64,000 bases of DNA from the IMG/VR virus record IMGVR_UViG_3300028628_000004; one strand, written 5' to 3'. This document shows positions 1 through 7,445 of the stretch, piece by piece. The notes beneath the pieces were generated by a model. It was given only the letters and a program-made list of their open reading frames with translations, was not told the origin of the DNA and did no database searches. This DNA is from a virus (lineage: Duplodnaviria; Caudoviricetes). Position numbers and translations under genes: made by a program. Numbering within the stretch: position 1 is the stretch's first letter; each line of letters begins with the position of its first letter.

Positions 1-76
1 ACCTACGACCATTGGATTATGGCAGTGATTTGTTAATCACCGAAATCCAAAGCTCTTCCAACTGAGCTACGAGAAC
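1..76 (-). tRNA. tRNA truncated at the window edge, with a ~22-nt hairpin insertion (intron-like) in the anticodon loop; identity ambiguous (Arg-UCG, Ile-UAU or CAU)
   Basis: Reverse complement GTTCTCG-TA-GCTC-AGTTGGAA-GAGC-T-TTGGA-[TTTCGGTGATTAACAAATCACTGCCATAA]-TCCAA-TGGTC-GTAGGT; a 29-nt loop instead of 7. Confidence 0.7.
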
Positions 77-79
77 ATG

Positions 80-158
80 TGGCACCCATGGTAGGAGTTG
101 AACCTACATGTATCCAGTTAGCTTTCTCCTGCTTAGAAGGCAGGCGGCATACATGGGC
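80..158 (-). tRNA. D-armless tRNA-like RNA, anticodon UCU (Arg)
   Basis: GCCCATG/CATGGGT-G-CCA acceptor, CCTGC-CTTCTAA-GCAGG anticodon arm, GTAGG-TTCAACT-CCTAC T arm; 7 nt replace the D arm; 20-nt variable region. Confidence 0.7.
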
Positions 159-165
159 ATGAAGA

Positions 166-236
166 AATCGGGGAGATTAGGAGTTACGGTGTTTTGTTTC
201 ATAAGGTGAAGTAACCGTAACAATGACTGCCCCAAA
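166..236 (-). ncRNA. Structured repeat RNA, copy 1 (GTTACGGTTACTTC...ACCGTAAC hairpin)
   Basis: Close paralog at 1910-1987; stems GGGG/CCCC and GTTACGGT/ACCGTAAC. Confidence 0.55.
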
Positions 237-241
237 GGATT

Positions 242-359
242 GTGTTAGCATAGGGGGATTCGAACCCAGGCAACATAAGTCGCCTGTTTTACCCGCATGA
301 CATTTTAGTGACCGCTATTTGCAGTCTGTCGGATCTACCGCTGAGCTACACGCTAACAC
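242..359 (-). ncRNA. Expanded tRNA-like RNA with hairpin insertions, no encoded CCA
   Basis: 11-bp terminal stem, TAGCTCAGCGGTAGA D-like arm, GGTTCGAATCC T loop, inserted hairpins GACTGC/GCGGTC and CAGGCGAC/GTTGCCTG. Confidence 0.5.
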
Positions 360-364
360 GAAAA

Positions 365-454
365 GGTGAGTCTCTAGTAGGCTGGCGAGAGGCTACGATG
401 GTTAGTCGTATAAGCGACCTGAAAAAGTCGCTCCACGTTCACTACTAGGCACCC
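365..454 (-). ncRNA. Unknown multi-stem structured RNA
   Basis: CTAGTAG/CTACTAG closing stem enclosing AGCGAC/GTCGCT and TACGA/TCGTA hairpins. Confidence 0.4.
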
Positions 455-463
455 GAATTAAAT

Positions 464-546
464 TGGTGGACAGAATTACCTTTTACGATTAGCTGCCCGA
501 TCCTAATCAACCATTGTTAGATGGGGAAATGGTATCGAATAACCCC
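464..546 (-). ncRNA. CCA-ending structured RNA, not a cloverleaf
   Basis: Ends TCCACCA; stems TACC/GGTA, CCAT/ATGG, GATTAG/CTAATC. Confidence 0.35.
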
Positions 547-548
547 TT

Positions 549-624
549 TGGTGGACACAAAGGGAGTCGAACCCTTCACAGATGCATTGCAAGTGCGTCT
601 CGCCCCCACGGAACATGTGTGCCC
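549..624 (-). tRNA. tRNA-Ala(UGC)
   Basis: GGGCACA/TGTGTCC-A-CCA with G3.U70; loop CT-TGC-AA; GGTTCGACTCC. Confidence 0.9.
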
Positions 625-629
625 AAAAA

Positions 630-685
630 TGGTGAAGCTGGTTTCTTTTTATGAGTGAAACACTTTGCCTCTAACAAAAGTTCTC
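630..685 (-). ncRNA. Mini CCA-ending RNA with a CT-CAT-AA anticodon-like loop
   Basis: GTTTC-ACTCATAAAAA-GAAAC hairpin, 3' AGCTTCACCA; related to 766-826. Confidence 0.4.
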
Positions 686-688
686 GTA

Positions 689-764
689 TGGTGGAATGAT
701 CCGGCTACGCTCCGGACGCCTCCTGCGTGCAAGGCAGGCGCTCTACTGAATGAGCTATCACCCC
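689..764 (-). tRNA. tRNA-Ala(UGC), non-canonical T loop
   Basis: GGGGTGA/TCATTCC-A-CCA (G3.U70), CCTGC-CTTGCAC-GCAGG, T loop AGCGTAG. Confidence 0.85.
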
Positions 765-765
765 A

Positions 766-826
766 TGGAAAGCTATATGTTTCTTTTTGTTGACAGGGAA
801 AGAAACTTGTAGAGTCGCTTAGCTTC
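766..826 (-). ncRNA. Mini CCA-ending RNA with a CT-GTC-AA anticodon-like loop
   Basis: AAGCTA/TAGCTT-T-CCA stem; GTTTCTTT-CCCTGTCAACAA-AAAGAAAC hairpin; no D or T arm. Confidence 0.45.
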
Positions 827-845
827 TACTAGAAAGAACCCACGA

Positions 846-921
846 TGGATGCGGTGGGCTGGACTTGCACCAGCGATTCCCGCCTTATGAGGGCGGTGAG
901 ATGCTACTTCTCTACCCCGCA
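846..921 (-). tRNA. tRNA-Met(CAU)
   Basis: CCGCC-CTCATAA-GGCGG; GCTGG-TGCAAGT-CCAGC; CCA end. Confidence 0.8.
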
Positions 922-953
922 ATGCTGAAGGTTATTAGATACCTACAAACTTT

Positions 954-1027
954 TGGAAGCGCAGAAAGGAGTCGCACCTTTATCTATTGGTTATGAGCCA
1001 ATTATGCTACTGTTACACCACCGCGCA
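954..1027 (-). tRNA. tRNA-Met(CAU), 1:72 mismatch (initiator-like)
   Basis: TGCGCGG/CTGCGCT-T-CCA; ATTGG-CTCATAA-CCAAT; AAAGG-TGCGACT-CCTTT. Confidence 0.8.
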
Positions 1028-1776
1028 GTGTTAATACGAATTCTACCCTTTACAAATCCCATTTCTATATATTTGTTTATGTCATTTTTATTTATTCTAA
1101 AACATTCACCAGTTTGAAGATTCTTCACCCATATGAGTTGAGAATATATTTTACCATATCTCTCTTTCATAGTGTTTGATAAGTTTTCTCTTGTTTCTTT
1201 CGATGACATTCTTTCTTTCATTTTTTGTGAAAGTAATGTCTTAGTTTCGTTACTTCCACATTCACTCTCTTTTTTGTATCTTTCTTTTACTGATAATGAG
1301 ATTTTGTTTCTTACCTCATCATTTATATATCTTTTCTTTGCTCTATCTGACATTTTCTTTCTCGTTTCATCTGATATAATTCTTGTCTTATTAGTATCTA
1401 TCATTTTTTGTTTTGATTCTTTCGAGTAGGTTTTTGGTTTCTGACTTATTATGGAGAGCTTTCTTTTTGTCTCATCAGTGTGATTCTTTCCTCTAAACTT
1501 TGGTCCACCTTCGCCACCAACTGATATGTTATAAACATCTTTTCTTTTTATAAAATCTTCATTCACAATAAGTATTTCCATTTTATCCATTTGCTCTTCG
1601 TTGTCAAAAACATGGAGTATTTCTTTTGTAAAGTTACTTCTCCCATATTTCTTAACGGCAGCCTTTATATGATGTCCGGAACCTAAGTAATCATCGTTGA
1701 TATTTTCGGTTTGGTGCTTCCCAATGTAAATCTTACCGTTTATCTTATTAGTTATCTTGTATATGGTATAAAACAT
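991..1776 (-). CDS. Free-standing GIY-YIG (Seg-like) homing endonuclease with NUMOD3-like repeats
   Basis: TIYKITNKINGKIYIGKH...YLGSG...YN; HTDETKRKLS/ISDETRKKMS repeats; start reassigned to 1776 (AGGAG RBS at 1781-1785, TATAAATA at 1796-1803). Confidence 0.9.
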   Translation of the reverse strand: MFYTIYKITNKINGKIYIGKHQTENINDDYLGSGHHIKAAVKKYGRSNFTKEILHVFDNEEQMDKMEILIVNEDFIKRKDVYNISVGGEGGPKFRGKNHTDETKRKLSIISQKPKTYSKESKQKMIDTNKTRIISDETRKKMSDRAKKRYINDEVRNKISLSVKERYKKESECGSNETKTLLSQKMKERMSSKETRENLSNTMKERYGKIYSQLIWVKNLQTGECFRINKNDINKYIEMGFVKGRIRINTARWCNSSIIGS

Positions 1777-1909
1777 AATACTCCTATTATACCAGTATTT
1801 ATATTTCATAACCAAACGATTTACTGCTTCTCTATCAAAAATGGGAGCCAACCTAACGCAAGCTAGGGACACTTTTTACGGCTATCACAACTTACATACG
1901 ACACAGATG

Positions 1910-1987
1910 AATCAGGGAGATTATTAGCTACGGTGTTTTTTTTTCGTTTTATGTAAATGAAGTAACCGTAACAGTGACTGCCCTAAA
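1910..1987 (-). ncRNA. Structured repeat RNA, copy 2
   Basis: GGGCAGTCACTGTTACGGTTACTTC...ACACCGTAGC...ATCTCCCTGATT; paralog of 166-236. Confidence 0.55.
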
Positions 1988-2063
1988 TGGTACACCCACA
2001 GGGAATCGAACCCTGATTAAGAGAATGAAAGTCTCCTGTACTGAGCCATTATACTATGGGTGC
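1988..2063 (-). tRNA. tRNA-Glu(UUC)
   Basis: GCACCCA/TGGGTGT-A-CCA; GGAGA-CTTTCAT-TCTCT; GGTTCGATTCC. Confidence 0.9.
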
Positions 2064-2105
2064 ATGTGAGTTACAGAGCCAAATGTAACTCTTATTATAT
2101 TTACA

Positions 2106-2208
2106 TGGTCGGGTTGGTCCTCCATGGGTCGCTGACAACAGAATTGCTGTGCGAGCCAACTCTCCCTCTTGCGAGTTCTATGAGTTGCGCTATCTATTGC
2201 TTTGACCG
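2106..2208 (-). ncRNA. CCA-ending structured RNA of unknown function
   Basis: Ends CCCGACCA; CTC-GCAA-GAG GNRA hairpin, AACTC/GAGTT, ACAGCA/TGTTGT. Confidence 0.4.
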
Positions 2209-2219
2209 TTCTATACAAC

Positions 2220-2295
2220 TGGTACTCCTTGAGAGACTTGCACTCTACTTTATACGCTTGAAAGGCGTGTTTCTTACTACATAGAAGAAAGGAGC
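2220..2295 (-). tRNA. tRNA-Glu(UUC), non-canonical elbow
   Basis: GCTCCTT/AAGGAGT-A-CCA; loop CT-TTC-AA; T loop TGCAAGT. Confidence 0.8.
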
Positions 2296-2346
2296 ATGAA
2301 CAGAGTTTTTCTTCCGCCAGGAAAAGGAAACTCCAAAACTTTGAGA

Positions 2347-2426
2347 TGGTCCGCGAGGCTGGATTCGAACCAGCTTGTATCCGTATAACCTTTCAACGAT
2401 TTATAAGACCGAGGGTGTACTCGCGG
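2347..2426 (-). tRNA. D-armless tRNA-like RNA, anticodon UAU (Ile)
   Basis: CCGCGAG/CTCGCGG-A-CCA; CGGT-CTTATAA-ATCG; GCTGG-TTCGAAT-CCAGC; no D arm; variable region GAAAGGTTATACGGATACAA. Confidence 0.7.
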
Positions 2427-2522
2427 GTAACTTTTCCTCGCATTTCTGCGTTAGGGTCTAATAGGTTATCAATACAAAGAGATGTAGCAGCGTTTATAGT
2501 GAGTTATGCTGCGATCACATTC

Positions 2523-2597
2523 TGGTGGGTCGCCACGGGGTCGATCCGTGTTCCATGGTTTAAAAGACCATTGCATCAGCCCTAATGCTTGCAACCC
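2523..2597 (-). tRNA. tRNA-Lys(UUU)
   Basis: GGGTTGC/GCGACCC-A-CCA; ATGGT-CTTTTAA-ACCAT. Confidence 0.85.
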
Positions 2598-2599
2598 AT

Positions 2600-2684
2600 A
2601 ATACAAACTACGCTATACACTTGTGAAGTCGCTGGCATTGCTGCCGTTGATGATACCATCATACAGCCCCTTTCAGGAATGCAA
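2600..2684 (-). promoter_or_regulatory. Internal tRNA-array promoter (TTGCAT-15-TATGAT) plus boxA-like leader
   Basis: -35 at 2679-2684, -10 at 2658-2663; leader GACTTCACAAGTGTATAGCGTAGTTTG, shared with ~3505-3533 and ~3995-4025. Confidence 0.6.
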
Positions 2685-2694
2685 GAGGTAATTT

Positions 2695-2780
2695 TGGTAG
2701 GGGTAGTCGGACTTGAACCGACACTCCGGTAAAGGAAGCGGATTTTAAATCCGATGCGGCTGCCATTACGCCATACCCCC
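2695..2780 (-). tRNA. tRNA-Leu(UAA)
   Basis: Long variable arm, loop TT-TAA-AA, GGTTCAAGTCC, A73-CCA. Confidence 0.9.
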
Positions 2781-2798
2781 ATTTTGTCAACAAGAAAT

Positions 2799-2875
2799 TG
2801 GTGGGTCCACTCGGTACTGCCCCGAGTCCCTCTGGTTAAGAGCCAGATGCTTACCACTTTTAGAGCTTTGGACCC
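2799..2875 (-). tRNA. tRNA-Lys(CUU)
   Basis: GGGTCCA/TGGACCC-A-CCA; TCTGG-CTCTTAA-CCAGA; T loop GGCAGTA. Confidence 0.85.
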
Positions 2876-2946
2876 ATGCCTCCTGTTTATTCCCACTCCT
2901 TCGAGTGGACTCACAATGATGTGAGAGGATCAAGAGATTCCTTTGA

Positions 2947-3076
2947 TGGTGTCGTGTGTAAGATTTTCACTTACCTTGATATCTTAATTGGATATCGTAT
3001 TTGACTGCTTTTTCTCCTTTTCGTCCTTGGGGGGATCCTTCACCACCCCAGGTCAGAGAAATAATACGAACACGAC
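2947..3076 (-). ncRNA. 130-nt RNA with a tRNA-like acceptor stem and T arm and a long rod replacing the D and anticodon arms
   Basis: GTCGTGT/ACACGAC-A-CCA; GTAAG-TGAAAAT-CTTAC; GATATC/GATATC; CGTATT/AATACG; TTTCTC/GAGAAA. Confidence 0.6.
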
Positions 3077-3077
3077 T

Positions 3078-3152
3078 TGGTAGGCGAGGTAGGTGCTGCC
3101 CCTACTACTTCCTGCATGTAAAGCAGGCACTCTGCTGTTGAGTTACGCGCCC
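3078..3152 (-). tRNA. tRNA-Val(UAC)
   Basis: CCTGC-TTTACAT-GCAGG; A73-CCA; T loop GGCAGCA. Confidence 0.85.
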
Positions 3153-3209
3153 ATGTGTTGGGTTTTTCACTCTTGTGGAGTATAGAAAAACCGTAACAAA
3201 ACTATTTTT

Positions 3210-3283
3210 TGGCTGCCCCAAAGGGAATCGAACCCCTATGATCTGATTAACAGTCAGACATAATACCATTATATGACAGGGCA
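3210..3283 (-). tRNA. tRNA-Asn(GUU)
   Basis: TCTGA-CTGTTAA-TCAGA; GGTTCGATTCC; G73-CCA. Confidence 0.9.
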
Positions 3284-3287
3284 ATGC

Positions 3288-3407
3288 TGGTGGAGTTGAT
3301 GGGATTCAAACCCATATTTGTCAAATGCCATTTAAGGCGTAAAGATGACTGTCTTTGTCCTGTTATGTGATGTTGCAACATCCATAAACATTAGACGACT
3401 TAACCCC
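3288..3407 (-). ncRNA. 120-nt tRNA-like RNA with G3.U70/A73 and hairpin insertions in the D loop and anticodon loop
   Basis: GGGGTT/AACTCC-A-CCA; ATGGG-TTTGAAT-CCCAT; GTCT/AGAC D stem enclosing GATGT-TGCA-ACATC; GTCA/TGAC enclosing GCC-TTAAAT-GGC. Confidence 0.55.
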
Positions 3408-3411
3408 ATAT

Positions 3412-3499
3412 TGGTGGGACCGGTAGGAGTCTCACCTACGGAGCCAATTAAGGCATCGGTTTTACAGACCGCGCTCGCCATCTACGAGCATACGTTCCC
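3412..3499 (-). tRNA. tRNA-Tyr(GUA)
   Basis: CGGT-CTGTAAA-ACCG, long variable arm, A73-CCA. Confidence 0.85.
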
Positions 3500-3504
3500 A
3501 TGAA

Positions 3505-3648
3505 TCAAACTACGTTTATATACTTGTAAAGTCATCAGTCAATCCTATGAGAGTTTTAATGTCGCCTGCCGTGTCTTTAGCACGGAGTCTTATGGCTTGC
3601 TCTCAGCGGCTTGATGGGTATATCCTAACAGGTATTTTAGGAATGCAA
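3505..3648 (-). promoter_or_regulatory. Internal tRNA-array promoter (TTGCAT-15-TAGGAT) plus boxA-like leader
   Basis: -35 at 3643-3648, -10 at 3622-3627; shares TCTTGCATTCCT with the 2684 promoter; leader GACTTTACAAGTATATAAACGTAGTTTG. Confidence 0.6.
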
Positions 3649-3674
3649 GAAGTATTTTTTTGAATTCCTGTAAG

Positions 3675-3749
3675 TGGTACTCGTACAGAGACTTGCACTC
3701 TGTTTATCCGATTGAGAATCGGGGTTCTTACTACATAGAAGATACGAGC
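3675..3749 (-). tRNA. tRNA-Glu(CUC)
   Basis: GCTCGTA/TACGAGT-A-CCA; loop TT-CTC-AA; paralog of 2220-2295. Confidence 0.8.
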
Positions 3750-3751
3750 AT

Positions 3752-3832
3752 TAGAGCCTCTGACGGGGATTAGGCACCCCGCTTCCTCCGGTTTACAGTC
3801 CGGTGCTTTAAACTAATATAAGCTACAGAAGC
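3752..3832 (-). tRNA. Degenerate Thr-like tRNA (irregular loop ACTGTAAA), possibly a pseudogene
   Basis: GCTTCTG/CAGAGGC stem, D and T arms present; irregular anticodon loop; no CCA. Confidence 0.45.
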
Positions 3833-3913
3833 ATGGCTCCGAATTTGTTATTACGCTGAGTCTATCGGAATACTCTCAGATGCCGCTGTGTTAGAGAGGG
3901 GCGGCTCCCCTTA

Positions 3914-3991
3914 TGGTGCGGTAAACAGGACTTGAACCTGCAACATCCACTATGGCAAAGTGGCGCTCTAATCCAATTGAGCTATTACCGC
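3914..3991 (-). tRNA. tRNA-Gly(GCC), first gene of the array
   Basis: GCGGTAA/TTACCGC-A-CCA; CCACT-TTGCCAT-AGTGG; GGTTCAAGTCC. Confidence 0.92.
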
Positions 3992-4031
3992 ATACTACAA
4001 ACTACGCTATAGAATTGTGAAAGACATCCGA

Positions 4032-4064
4032 AACGAAAAAAGCCTCTGGTTTGACCAGAGGCTT
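4032..4064 (-). terminator. Intrinsic terminator of the putative attenuator
   Basis: AAGCCTCTGG-TCAAA-CCAGAGGCTT followed by TTTTCGTTT. Confidence 0.85.
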
Positions 4065-4094
4065 GTGTATCTCATGAAGAGATAGACAGCCTCT
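4057..4094 (-). promoter_or_regulatory. Antiterminator hairpin, mutually exclusive with the terminator
   Basis: AGAGGCT-GT-C-TATCTC-TTCAT-GAGATA-C-AC-A-AGCCTCT uses the terminator's 5' strand AGCCTCT. Confidence 0.75.
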
Positions 4095-4158
4095 AGGAAC
4101 CCACGCCTTCTGCGTTGGCTCTTTTATATCCTATCTTATTTGTTAAGCAAGTGGTCAT
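4093..4158 (-). CDS. Putative 21-aa attenuator leader peptide MTTCLTNKIGYKRANAEGVGS
   Basis: ATG at 4158, AGGA upstream, TAG overlapping the antiterminator; all 21 codons different; too short for the ORF track. Confidence 0.65.
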   Translation of the reverse strand: MTTCLTNKIGYKRANAEGVGS

Positions 4159-4193
4159 TGAAGGCGTGTTCCTAAGTGTGTGATACAGGGTTG

Positions 4194-4928
4194 CTATAAA
4201 GTATTTATATGGGATATTGTATCACACTTTAAATTTTTTCCTAAACATATTTTAAAGTAGCTTTCCGATACCTCATAGCCAACATACTCTCTGCCAAGTT
4301 TCTCACAGGATTCTGCGACTGTTCCTATGCCCATGAAAGGATCTAGGACAGTATCACCAGCATCAGTTGATAATTTAATACAGATTTCTGGTAACAATGG
4401 ATGGAAGGGTGCTGGATGGTCCTTCTGCTTCTTCGGAGGCATGACCCAAACCTCTGACCGAAATTCTTTGGGTAGTCTGCTTTTGTATACCTTTGGCTTG
4501 CCCTTAGCTAACCAGAATATATATTCAGTGGTTGGAGTCAAAACATCATTCCGTATATTAGGAGAGTTTCTTCTGTCAATAATTATAAGCTGATAGAGAT
4601 TCCACTTTGTCTTGCTCACGATATCGTAGGGGTTGTAGCACTTGTTGCTCTTTCGACGCATCTTGTGGTTGTAAAACAAAGATCCATCGTCTTTAGTTTT
4701 TTCAAATATCTTATCAAGAATCTTTACTTGCCACTCTTGGTATTCACTCTCTGGCATGTCATCGCCATATACATCATAGTCGATGTTGTGCTTTGACCAT
4801 ATCTGGTTTCCAGTTTTTACCTTCCCCAGCAATCCCTTCTTGTTATAGGGCGGGGAGGTAATTGTAGTCTGGATGCTATTGTCTGATAGGCTTGAAATAC
4901 CTTCAAGACAATCCATGTTATAAATCAT
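4194..4928 (-). CDS. DNA methyltransferase, N4-C/N6-A beta class
   Basis: TSPPY, HPAPF, VLDPFMGIGT motifs. Confidence 0.92.
   Translation of the reverse strand: MIYNMDCLEGISSLSDNSIQTTITSPPYNKKGLLGKVKTGNQIWSKHNIDYDVYGDDMPESEYQEWQVKILDKIFEKTKDDGSLFYNHKMRRKSNKCYNPYDIVSKTKWNLYQLIIIDRRNSPNIRNDVLTPTTEYIFWLAKGKPKVYKSRLPKEFRSEVWVMPPKKQKDHPAPFHPLLPEICIKLSTDAGDTVLDPFMGIGTVAESCEKLGREYVGYEVSESYFKICLGKNLKCDTISHINTL
4202..4224 (-). promoter_or_regulatory. T4 late promoter TATAAATA (4202-4209) and extended -10 TGaTACAAT upstream of the leader
   Basis: Exact gp55 consensus; TGn-TACAAT at 4216-4224. Confidence 0.6.
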
Positions 4929-4964
4929 TAATGTATTCTATGACTTATTTTTTGGAAGTCAACA

Positions 4965-7445
4965 TTAGCATTTTGAGTAGCCACATGCCTTACAAGTCTG
5001 ACATCCTTCCATACGGATGATGTCCTTGCTACCGCAGCTTGGACATGTTTCTCCGCTTACCTTTACTCCATTTTTAATATACTTCTTCAGGACTCGGCAC
5101 ATGACCTTGGTGAAGGATGCTATATTGTCGGTACGGACCTTTTCAAGTTGATGAACAAGATGCTCAAGAGGCGTTCCATGTCTCAACGAAATAGATACAA
5201 GACGGGTTACAAGCTCTTCTTCCTCTGTCTGGTCCTTCATGATGTTCTTGATAGTGAACCCATCATCAAATTCAACGTCATAGTGACCTTTTGCTTTCTT
5301 GACAAGCTTTCCATTGACATACTTCTTGTCAATGGTTCCGTTTTCGAAAACGAATAGTTCGTATGGCTCTCCACCTTCGAACAGACCAACGACCGCACAG
5401 TATTCTATTGAGCGAACCTTGTCAAGTTTCTTGCTGAGCTTCACATGGTGTACTTCGCACTTGAGAGAAGTGGGACGCTTTGGGGCTGTTGTTTTAGTGA
5501 TGGTAATAGCGTCTCTTCCGGATTTTTCCTTTGTTTCCTTTGGTTTATCGTCAACGAGAACACCAGTACGACAGCCATCACGATAGATGGTAAAGCCCTT
5601 GCAGCCGCTTTCCCATGCCTTCATGTAAATCTCGGATACAAGTTCCTTGGTAGCAGAGTTTGGTAGGTTACAGGTCTTGCTGATAGAGTGACTTACCCAC
5701 TTCTGTGCTGCTGCCTGAAGATCCACGGAAGCGACCCAATCAATCTCGTTTGAGGTTGCTTTGAAGTATGGGGAGTCTTCTATTTTTTCTTTTCCGGTTA
5801 CTTCCATCCACTTGCGGAAGCCGTGGTGATAAACAGGAAACTCTTGCCACTTGTCACCCATGTCATCAACAAAATCAACTTTAGCAGATTTATCGTTTGG
5901 ATTTATTTTCTTACGACGAGTGTACTTAAGAAGGAACGAAGGTTCGATTCCAGAGGTAGTCTGTGTCATGGTAGAAACAGATCCAACTGGAGCCGTGGTA
6001 GTGGTCGATATGTTTCTACGACCATGCTTCTTGTAAAGGGTCTTGAGTTCGGGGTCAGATTCCAATAGCCTCTCTATAAATGGATGACCCCTCTCAAGCT
6101 TAGCGTCGAATATCGGGAATGTTCCACGATCACGCGCCATCATACACGATGCCTTCTCGGAGTTGATGGCAAGTGCCTTGTATATTTCTTCAGTTTTCTT
6201 GATGGATTCTTTGGAGCCATAGCGAATATTTAAGGCGGCGAGGGCGTCACCAAGGGCAGTGATGCCAAGCCCTGTTCTACGACCATTGATGCATGCATTC
6301 TTGATGTTATTCCAGAGGTCAATTTCTATCTTCTTAACATTCTCTGGCTCAATATCGGCATGTATCTTCTTTAGAATCTTATCTATCTGCTCAAGCTCAA
6401 TATCAATCATATCGTCCATAAGCCGCTGGGCTACTTGAGTAACTTCCGCGAACTTGACGAAATCAAACTCTGCTTTGTCAGTAAACGCATCATTGACAAA
6501 CGAATTCAGATTGACAACCATAAGTCTGCAACTGTCGTATGGAGAAAGAGTTATCTCACCACATGGATTTGTTGAAGTGGATTTATATGATTCGTATATA
6601 TCTGCTGGACCGTTATTTACGACATTATCCCAGAAAAGGATTCCAGGCTCAGCGGATTCCCAAGCAGCCTGAATAATCTCGCTCCAGATTTCTCTTGCAT
6701 TTACCATTTCACTAATAGATGGCGTCTTGCTATCTACAGGAAAGCGCAACTCAACTTGTTTGTCCTGCTTGACTGCCTTCATGAACTCGTCAGTCATACG
6801 GATTGAAATGTTAGCACCAGTTACCTTCTTTTTGTCGCGCTTGATGTTGATGAAAGTTCTTATCTCGGGATGGTGACATGATATAGATAACATTAGAGCG
6901 CCTCTGCGCCCGTTCTGTGCAACTTCGCGACATGTATTCGAAAATCTTTCCATGAACACGCCGATACCGTCAGTGGTACGAGCAGCGTTCTTGGTTGATA
7001 GTCCCTTTGGACGAATATTGGATATATCGAATCCAACTCCACCACGACGCTTCATAACTTGAGCCTGCTCTTGGTCTGTATGTAATATACCACCATACGA
7101 GTCAAGCGGCGAAGGAATCACGAAGCAGTTTGATGCAGACTGAATCTGATACGGATTTCCTATGGCTGACATAGGAGAACCCTGTGGAACTATATACTTG
7201 AAATTCTTGAAGTAAGAATATATCTCATCTTCTGACAATGGGTTTGGATACTTCTTTTCAATTCTGGCAAATTCTTTTGCTATTCTTCTGTGGGCTTGGT
7301 CGGGGGAACTTTCGAGTAGTTCATGTTTTTCGTTTCTGAGCGCATACTTTCCTACGAATACTGAGGCTGCTAGTTCGTCACCATTGAAATATTCTACTGA
7401 CTCCTTAGTTGCTTCTTCGTGGGTGTAAATTCTCTTATTTGTCAT
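4965..7445 (-). CDS. nrdJ: Adenosylcobalamin-dependent (class II) ribonucleotide reductase with C-terminal Zn-ribbon extension
   Basis: SNCF, RRGGVG, TNPCGEI, SCRL, TTAPVGS, SGIEP, SISKTCN, YRDGCR, C-terminal CPSC...CKACGYSKC; no beta subunit nearby. Confidence 0.88.
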   Translation of the reverse strand: MTNKRIYTHEEATKESVEYFNGDELAASVFVGKYALRNEKHELLESSPDQAHRRIAKEFARIEKKYPNPLSEDEIYSYFKNFKYIVPQGSPMSAIGNPYQIQSASNCFVIPSPLDSYGGILHTDQEQAQVMKRRGGVGFDISNIRPKGLSTKNAARTTDGIGVFMERFSNTCREVAQNGRRGALMLSISCHHPEIRTFINIKRDKKKVTGANISIRMTDEFMKAVKQDKQVELRFPVDSKTPSISEMVNAREIWSEIIQAAWESAEPGILFWDNVVNNGPADIYESYKSTSTNPCGEITLSPYDSCRLMVVNLNSFVNDAFTDKAEFDFVKFAEVTQVAQRLMDDMIDIELEQIDKILKKIHADIEPENVKKIEIDLWNNIKNACINGRRTGLGITALGDALAALNIRYGSKESIKKTEEIYKALAINSEKASCMMARDRGTFPIFDAKLERGHPFIERLLESDPELKTLYKKHGRRNISTTTTAPVGSVSTMTQTTSGIEPSFLLKYTRRKKINPNDKSAKVDFVDDMGDKWQEFPVYHHGFRKWMEVTGKEKIEDSPYFKATSNEIDWVASVDLQAAAQKWVSHSISKTCNLPNSATKELVSEIYMKAWESGCKGFTIYRDGCRTGVLVDDKPKETKEKSGRDAITITKTTAPKRPTSLKCEVHHVKLSKKLDKVRSIEYCAVVGLFEGGEPYELFVFENGTIDKKYVNGKLVKKAKGHYDVEFDDGFTIKNIMKDQTEEEELVTRLVSISLRHGTPLEHLVHQLEKVRTDNIASFTKVMCRVLKKYIKNGVKVSGETCPSCGSKDIIRMEGCQTCKACGYSKC

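Follow-up and report, generated by a model that had tools for sequence, protein, structure and literature searches.

Ahead of a transfer RNA (tRNA) gene array in an uncultured phage lies a short leader, here called leader B, whose layout, conservation, and predicted folding point to a ribosome-mediated (leader-peptide) transcription attenuator that would gate transcription of a tRNA block from a TATAAATA promoter and would report decoding capacity to it. We regard this interpretation as evenly balanced between right and wrong. The stretch analyzed (the window; 64,000 nucleotides [nt] of IMG/VR record IMGVR_UViG_3300028628_000004, Duplodnaviria, Caudoviricetes) is part of a large phage known from metagenome assemblies only, and its genes include those for a DNA polymerase, a single-stranded DNA (ssDNA)-binding protein, a portal protein, several methylases, and a GIY-YIG homing endonuclease within the tRNA array. 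All leader B features are on the minus strand, where the order is ribonucleotide reductase gene, N6/N4 DNA methylase gene, leader B, terminator, a conserved motif, and tRNA-Gly(GCC), the first gene of what we call block B; the features on the side of a second tRNA block, block A, lie beyond the window start. Every feature that the initial annotation of this region had listed was found where that annotation had placed it (Table 1).

Leader B was found in four distinct versions: the window type (W, also present in L003 and L090), L001 and its copies, L089, and L098. These four lineages are 72-91% identical where they can be aligned (81% over the neighboring genes for L001; 72-89% for L089, which aligns only in patches), and the order of the tRNA genes in the blocks is kept in L089 and L098. 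The succession of promoter, open reading frame (ORF), antiterminator, terminator, and tRNA is kept in all four, in agreement with much of the attenuator geometry first proposed, and a short ORF with a terminator/antiterminator pair precedes related tRNA arrays both in the four leader B lineages and in a second leader, leader A, described below.

The promoter-like motif annotated upstream of the array was confirmed at 4209-4202. Of the 14 copies of TATAAATA in the window, 11 sit 13-36 nt upstream of a correctly oriented ATG (read from the coordinates); one copy precedes the portal gene and another the gene for the ssDNA-binding protein. In the 20-kb array region of L094, all copies are on the array strand (7/7, with 1.4 expected). 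Promoters of the T4 late type lie at a fixed short distance upstream of genes and require a phage late sigma factor, and the match to the T4 consensus together with the position before the portal gene suggests that the TATAAATA promoter would fire late. L098 lacks the intervening methylase gene; leader B there comes straight after the reductase gene and retains its own TATAAATA, which indicates that the promoter motif belongs to the leader rather than to the gene in which it is embedded in the window. The first ATG after the motif is 43 nt downstream and opens the 21-codon ORF that had been called at 4158-4093, a call that stands; the length of the frame is kept in all four lineages. Insertions and deletions among the lineages fall just before the invariant AGGAAC, just after the stop codon, and in loops, and none falls inside the frame; its codons have undergone five synonymous and three nonsynonymous changes, and the encoded peptide is the same in three of the four lineages. 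Shine-Dalgarno sites are used by the genes of this phage, and AGGAAC contains such a motif, separated from the ATG by a spacer that varies at three positions.

The stop codon UAG abuts the antiterminator in all four lineages. We recovered the antiterminator as it had been described, with its overlap of the stop codon and a strand shared with the terminator; its 16 pairs (4095-4056) include AGAGGCU (4094-4088) with AGCCUCU (4063-4057), enclosing an inner hairpin at 4084-4068. The terminator and its U tract are likewise present, with a stem of 11 base pairs (bp) in place of the 10 first counted, and lie 43 nt before tRNA-Gly. Because the 3' strand of the antiterminator is the 5' arm of the terminator, the two hairpins are mutually exclusive, and none of 2,000 shuffles of the upstream strand folded as well with the terminator 5' arm. 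The antiterminator has an energy of -21.0 kcal/mol in the window and -19.2, -20.4, and -18.9 kcal/mol in the relatives, compared with -16.6 to -17.5 kcal/mol for the terminator across the four lineages, and the best folds of the whole leader are nearly isoenergetic (-50.8 kcal/mol with the terminator and -49.7 kcal/mol with the antiterminator, a gap of 1.1 kcal/mol). The strand common to both hairpins is invariant in the four lineages, and the terminator loop and one base of the 3' arm vary. Changes in the antiterminator partner keep the pairs (A-U to G.U and U-A to U.G; in L001 the strand re-registers into a contiguous helix), and a change in the terminator 3' arm of L098 (U-A to U.G) also leaves pairing intact. 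Strong terminators on the array strand number only two in 16 kb, one at leader B and one at leader A. An RNAalifold consensus of three sequences returned a long-range fold and was uninformative.

A helix that could hide the leader ribosome-binding site (4174-4160 with 4110-4094) had also been proposed. It is complete in the window; its pairs are broken without compensation in the relatives (one in L001, three in L089, and, by inspection, at least three in L098). Better kept than this long-range pairing is a local hairpin over codons 13-21, which we call H1 and which is a candidate RNA polymerase pause hairpin.

We modeled the ribosome as a 30-nt footprint in constraint folding of the transcript before the 3' arm of the terminator exists. 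In these in silico folds the antiterminator forms with a probability of 1.00 without a ribosome or with a ribosome centered on codon 9, 13, or 17, and with a probability of 0.00 when the stop codon is in the A site; from codon 18 on it is sterically blocked, and folding with and without the protected window thus shows that only a ribosome at codons 18-22 blocks it. The initial annotation had supposed that loss of any one of the sampled tRNAs would stall the ribosome so as to free the antiterminator, which by these folds could apply to stalls at codons 1-17 and would fail for codons 18-22. If the promoter fires, the ORF is translated, and transcription is coupled to translation, the following sequence of events would be expected. 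RNA polymerase would start near 4195 and transcribe the 21-codon ORF; the antiterminator (4095-4056) would form once made and hold the 5' arm of the terminator, and the polymerase would continue into tRNA-Gly and block B. A ribosome that has translated the whole ORF and stands on the last four codons or on UAG would mask the 5' strand of the antiterminator, the terminator would form, and transcription would stop. Fast decoding would accordingly give termination, and slow decoding or a stall at codons 1-17 would give read-through and more tRNA.

The nature of the signal is suggested by the codons of the leader, which we compared with the tRNAs of each block under standard wobble rules (tRNAs called by ARAGORN and Rfam on the array strand, some with low confidence). 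The anticodon sets of the two blocks are nearly disjoint. That most leader codons match anticodons of the array had been noted at the outset, and the match proves to be specific to the frame: block B tRNAs read 16 of the 21 codons (17/21 in L098) and block A tRNAs read four (three to five across lineages), compared with eight and nine codons read by block B in the other two frames and an average of 10.8 in gene windows. Measured against gene windows, short ORFs, or stop-free windows, the match of leader B to its own block has a P of about 0.013-0.02, or 0.005 with the added requirement of few block A codons. Since block B tRNAs serve most of the amino acids and codons of which the ORF consists, the signal would probably be the supply of those tRNAs, which would amount to negative feedback on decoding capacity. 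Leader B has no tandem run of one codon, unlike a classical attenuator, and all of its 21 codons are distinct, as is the case for 0.5% of 21-codon windows of phage genes and 1.5% of the phage's short ATG ORFs (codon and chance statistics that were chosen after the sequence had been seen). The absence of repeated codons, which the original proposal stressed, is true of leader B in the window; it is not conserved, for AAT occurs twice in L089 and several codons recur in leader A.

Leader A, which escaped the initial annotation, is an independent replicate of leader B and the strongest support for the interpretation. It stands about 7.7 kb downstream of leader B and has the same plan without sequence similarity: a TATAAATA motif, an ATG 13 nt on, a frame of 34 codons (35 in L098, through an in-frame insertion of 3 nt), and an antiterminator/terminator pair, followed by tRNA-Ser(GCT). 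An 8-bp pairing joins the last codons to the 5' arm of the terminator. The antiterminator (-18.3 to -19.8 kcal/mol) is again set against a terminator of similar strength (-17.0 to -17.9 kcal/mol), with shuffle P values of 0.0005-0.0055; the terminator carries two double compensatory changes, and the shared strand has changed once, a change that the terminator compensates and the antiterminator accommodates as G.U. Block A tRNAs read 25-28 of the 34-35 codons and block B tRNAs read six (P of 0.001-0.005 for the match to its own block; P = 0.007 for the synonymous choice alone). The L094 and L089 peptides are unlike at 12 of 34 positions, and about 10 of the 12 replaced codons remain within the block A set. 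Chance is an unlikely explanation for the own-block match of both leaders taken together.

The recurrence of the design in an unrelated leader, written in the codons of the next block, raises a broader possibility, namely that each tRNA block is gated by its own test ORF in the codons that it decodes, and that such block-by-block sensing raises transcription of the matching tRNAs, for example after attack by host anticodon nucleases or phage-induced tRNA loss. Block-specific sensing of tRNA supply is, in our view, the likeliest purpose of such an attenuator, but we offer this extension tentatively, and think it somewhat more apt to fail than to be right. Were the model true, the tRNA genes would be regulated by their own decoding activity in a feedback loop, the leader would be a simple, self-contained sensor that extends classical attenuation from amino-acid supply to tRNA supply, and the grouping of tRNAs into blocks would have a testable explanation. 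An element of about 220 nt could also serve as a probe of tRNA availability, testable in reporters or in a purified coupled system. Phage tRNA arrays have come to be treated as countermeasures to tRNA-cleaving host defenses (PMC10264068, PMC11464382).

Several observations weigh against leader-peptide attenuation. No convincing anti-antiterminator (1:2 pairing) was found in the leader, and untranslated nascent RNA folds the antiterminator (P = 1.00), so that the default without translation would be read-through. The Shine-Dalgarno-like motif is 10-11 nt from the ATG, and phage genes use GGAG/AGGA with shorter spacers, which puts the leader at the long edge. With the peptide taken as fixed, leader B shows nothing unusual in its synonymous choice (P = 0.11), and the match therefore lies in the amino acids used. 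The other frames of leader A also lean to block A codons (18-20/34), so that base composition explains part of the match there. The match statistics are moreover post hoc, and they depend on wobble rules and on tRNA calls of which some have low confidence. Changes in leader A are spread evenly over codon positions (7, 8, and 7), and its frame survives an equal number of random changes 11% of the time. A conserved promoter-like motif separates the terminator from the first tRNA and recurs within the blocks, so that the switch may govern only part of tRNA transcription. Finally, codons 7-18 (4105-4140; 36 bases, including every third position) are identical in four lineages that otherwise differ by 10-25%, an invariance that exceeds what decoding needs and suggests an added or alternative function at the level of RNA or DNA.

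That last point lends itself to another explanation, in which the switch is real but is set by a phage or host protein, small RNA, or small ligand binding the core (4140-4105) or the antiterminator, and the open frame is incidental. We consider this unlikely. Besides the invariance, which extends to third codon positions, it draws on the poor Shine-Dalgarno spacing, on the unexceptional synonymous choice in leader B, and on a resemblance of the core to the TATAAATAAAGATAG head of leader A. It sits less well with the predicted structure of the core region, which is low (z of -1.7 for 4195-4085), and with the Rfam search of 4034-4209, in which neither a T-box nor any other family matched at E up to 1 with permissive filters. 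Nor would it account for the retention of frame, start, and stop in both leaders, or for the placement of the stop or last codons on the 5' strand of the antiterminator in two unrelated sequences, and the frame-specific match to the tRNAs of each leader's own block plays no role in it.

The motif before tRNA-Gly bears on a more conventional account. The motif ends 1 nt before the 5' ends of the Gly, Lys, Ser-GCT, and Val-GAC tRNAs, with sites at 3992-4021, 2598-2627, and 3506-3514 of the window and at 5963-5971 and 7414-7422 of L094. Its CGTAGTTTG element is present in five copies on the L094 array strand (0.11 expected), four of them 6-7 nt before a called tRNA 5' end, and in three copies in the window. 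Should the motif act as a promoter, some tRNA transcription would escape the switch. The caveat first entered about independent tRNA promoters stands, as a conserved promoter-like motif directly before several tRNAs may drive them on its own. An ordinary terminator might then end the reductase/methylase unit and insulate the array, which would be driven by the 4021-3992 motif and its internal copies, leaving the ORF and the upstream complement without regulatory function. The terminator does lie 130 nt after the methylase gene, and TTCACA-18-TAnTAT does stand between it and tRNA-Gly and recur before other tRNAs. We nevertheless find this account distinctly unlikely, given that the antiterminator exceeds the terminator in stability, persists in four lineages through changes that preserve pairs, and was equaled in 0/2,000 shuffles; such a terminator would seldom form unless the antiterminator were removed. 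The account also leaves aside the TATAAATA motif, which accompanies the leader even in the lineage that lacks the methylase gene, and the recurrence of the same plan at the second terminator.

Highly unlikely, in our judgment, is a self-contained late gene for a small RNA of about 160 nt or a 21-residue peptide that acts in trans and merely adjoins the array: the promoter motif, the strong terminator, and the short conserved region between them do make a complete unit, the leader B peptide is the same in 3/4 lineages, and trans-acting leader peptides are known (peTrpL, PMC7298713), but the conserved alternative pairing with the terminator is left unexplained, the leader A peptide diverges freely (12/34, L094 versus L089), and there is no account of why each of the two units stands precisely at the head of a tRNA block and matches that block.

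Leader-peptide attenuation of the tRNA blocks would have precedents as well as differences from them. The attenuators of enterobacterial amino-acid operons (trpL, hisL, leuL, pheL; the multivalent thr and ilv leaders) likewise have a short ORF after the promoter, exclusive hairpins, a terminator before the genes, and ribosome position as the signal, which is what we propose here. They regulate enzymes, whereas leader B would regulate tRNAs, and they carry a run of codons for one amino acid in place of mixed codons that mirror a block; there is no sequence similarity. In trp, the untranslated leader terminates. Leader B, in contrast, has no clear 1:2 anti-antiterminator, and its predicted untranslated default is read-through. 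The leader-peptide attenuator of pheST (pheM) in Escherichia coli acts on a gene of the translation apparatus, but controls a synthetase by way of Phe codons only, rather than tRNA genes. T-box leaders, the tRNA-sensing riboswitches of Gram-positive bacteria, resemble leader B in sensing tRNA status (as proposed here) through a choice between terminator and antiterminator, yet their specifier codon and T-box bulge contact uncharged tRNA itself, without translation, and they control synthetase or amino-acid genes. The principle of leader-peptide transcription attenuation is described in PMC1183508. Ribosome-mediated attenuators that sense a general slowdown of translation are described for bmrCD of Bacillus subtilis (PMC4191407) and for mef/mel (PMC4335068); their ORFs, like that of leader B, show no enrichment for a single amino acid, and a stall anywhere in them favors read-through of the terminator. 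They respond to antibiotics and control efflux or resistance genes, whereas here the output would be tRNA and the composition of the leader follows the block. A full-text literature search turned up no report of tRNA genes, phage or other, under leader-peptide attenuation.

Searches beyond the four lineages added nothing further. The phage GenBank collection held no relative of 3700-4950, with matches to tRNA-Gly only; 78 IMG/VR loci with a related ribonucleotide reductase had neither the leader nor a nearby tRNA array; and when IMG/VR was scanned with the leader core and the pre-tRNA motif, nothing emerged except the one known contig or chance matches without tRNAs. The more distant KTSC relatives with retrievable DNA occur in other genomic contexts, a 176-amino-acid (aa) ORF within the array had no relatives, and the methylase relatives (63-68% identity) were left out, as methylases move between contexts.

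Table 1. Features of leader B and its surroundings, with the leader A module and the contents of both tRNA blocks (window coordinates unless a locus is named)
Feature	Coordinates	Strand	Remarks
N6/N4 DNA methylase ORF	4928-4194	-	Pfam PF01555, E 1e-34; stop TAG 4196-4194
TATAAATA promoter-like motif	4202..4209	-	T4 late-promoter consensus; presumed start of leader transcript; within last methylase codons
AGGAA, Shine-Dalgarno-like motif	4169..4173	-	10 nt before leader B ATG
Leader ORF B	4093..4158	-	ATG (4158), 20 more sense codons, TAG (4095-4093); same length, start, and stop in W, L001, L098, and L089
Local hairpin H1, codons 13-21	4097..4121	-	-12.3 kcal/mol, z -3.9; relatives -13.8, -12.7, and -9.4
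Antiterminator hairpin	4056..4095	-	5' strand begins at stop codon; 16 pairs, -21.0 kcal/mol
Intrinsic terminator	4034..4064 (stem 4064-4040)	-	11-bp stem, CAA loop, T run; -17.5 kcal/mol
Motif TTCACAA..TATA..CGTAGTTTG..TAnTAT	3992..4021	-	promoter-like; ends 1 nt before tRNA-Gly; contains boxA-like UCUUUCACAA
tRNA-Gly(GCC)	3991-3914	-	tRNA call; first gene of block B
tRNA block B (Gly-GCC onward)	1..3991	-	runs past window start; ends at leader A, about 3.4 kb beyond it
Leader A module before tRNA-Ser(GCT)	L094 7626-7409 (-); L089 6207-6419; L098 9194-9415		about 7.7 kb downstream of leader B, beyond window start
Block B tRNAs			Gly, Tyr, Glu, Asn, Val-UAC, Lys, Leu-UAA, Ile-UAU, Met, Ala, Arg-UCU/CCU, Thr-UGU/CGU
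Block A tRNAs			Ser, Thr-GGU/AGU, Val-GAC, Arg-ACG, Ile-GAU, Asp, His, Phe, Gln, Pro, Trp, Leu-CAA/UAG

Some further features of the leader and the pre-tRNA motif deserve mention. The invariant core of leader B can also be read as TTGCTT-16-TATAAA; TRAP-like (G/U)AG repeats in it were considered and dropped, their spacing being irregular by eye. The stop codon of leader B is UAG in all four lineages, the methylase gene is UAG-terminated as well, and UAG is the rarest stop among window genes. Block B contains a tRNA with anticodon CUA (L003 17164-17239, about 2.2 kb beyond the window start, and L098 7574), possibly an amber suppressor; read-through of UAG in leader B would bring the ribosome into the antiterminator. 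The pre-tRNA motif is sigma-70-like (TTCACA-18-TAnTAT) yet too near the tRNA for a usual start, it includes a boxA-like UCUUU(C/A)ACAA, and one inverted copy lies just upstream of leader A. The UCUUUCACAA that follows the terminator (UCUUUAACAA in L089) resembles the rrn boxA core, as in the boxA antitermination leaders of rrn and lambda; it is a resemblance only, and the element lies downstream of the switch and at a fixed 1 nt before tRNA 5' ends, unlike boxA.

The surrounding genes and tRNAs show several peculiarities. The homing endonuclease gene inside the tRNA array (GIY-YIG/NUMOD3, window 991-1872 on the minus strand; phrog_314, E 7.5e-44) has its own TATAAATA at 1803-1796, and is probably absent from L089, in which the flanking tRNAs are not separated by a comparable gap. 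In the L001 lineage the ribonucleotide reductase gene contains an intein with an HNH domain (1138 aa, compared with 826 aa in the window; L091/L092 2184-5600 and window 4965-7445). Between tRNA genes of block A, an Rfam abiF RNA match occurs at L094 4986-5023 on the minus strand (41.6 bits, for a gathering score of 37). Odd tRNA-like genes, with an unassignable anticodon loop, missing D arms, or inserts of 22-45 nt, are found at 3754-3832, 80-158, and 1-76 of the window and at L094 11208-11431; in L098, Ile-UAU and Arg-UCU are called as standard tRNAs.

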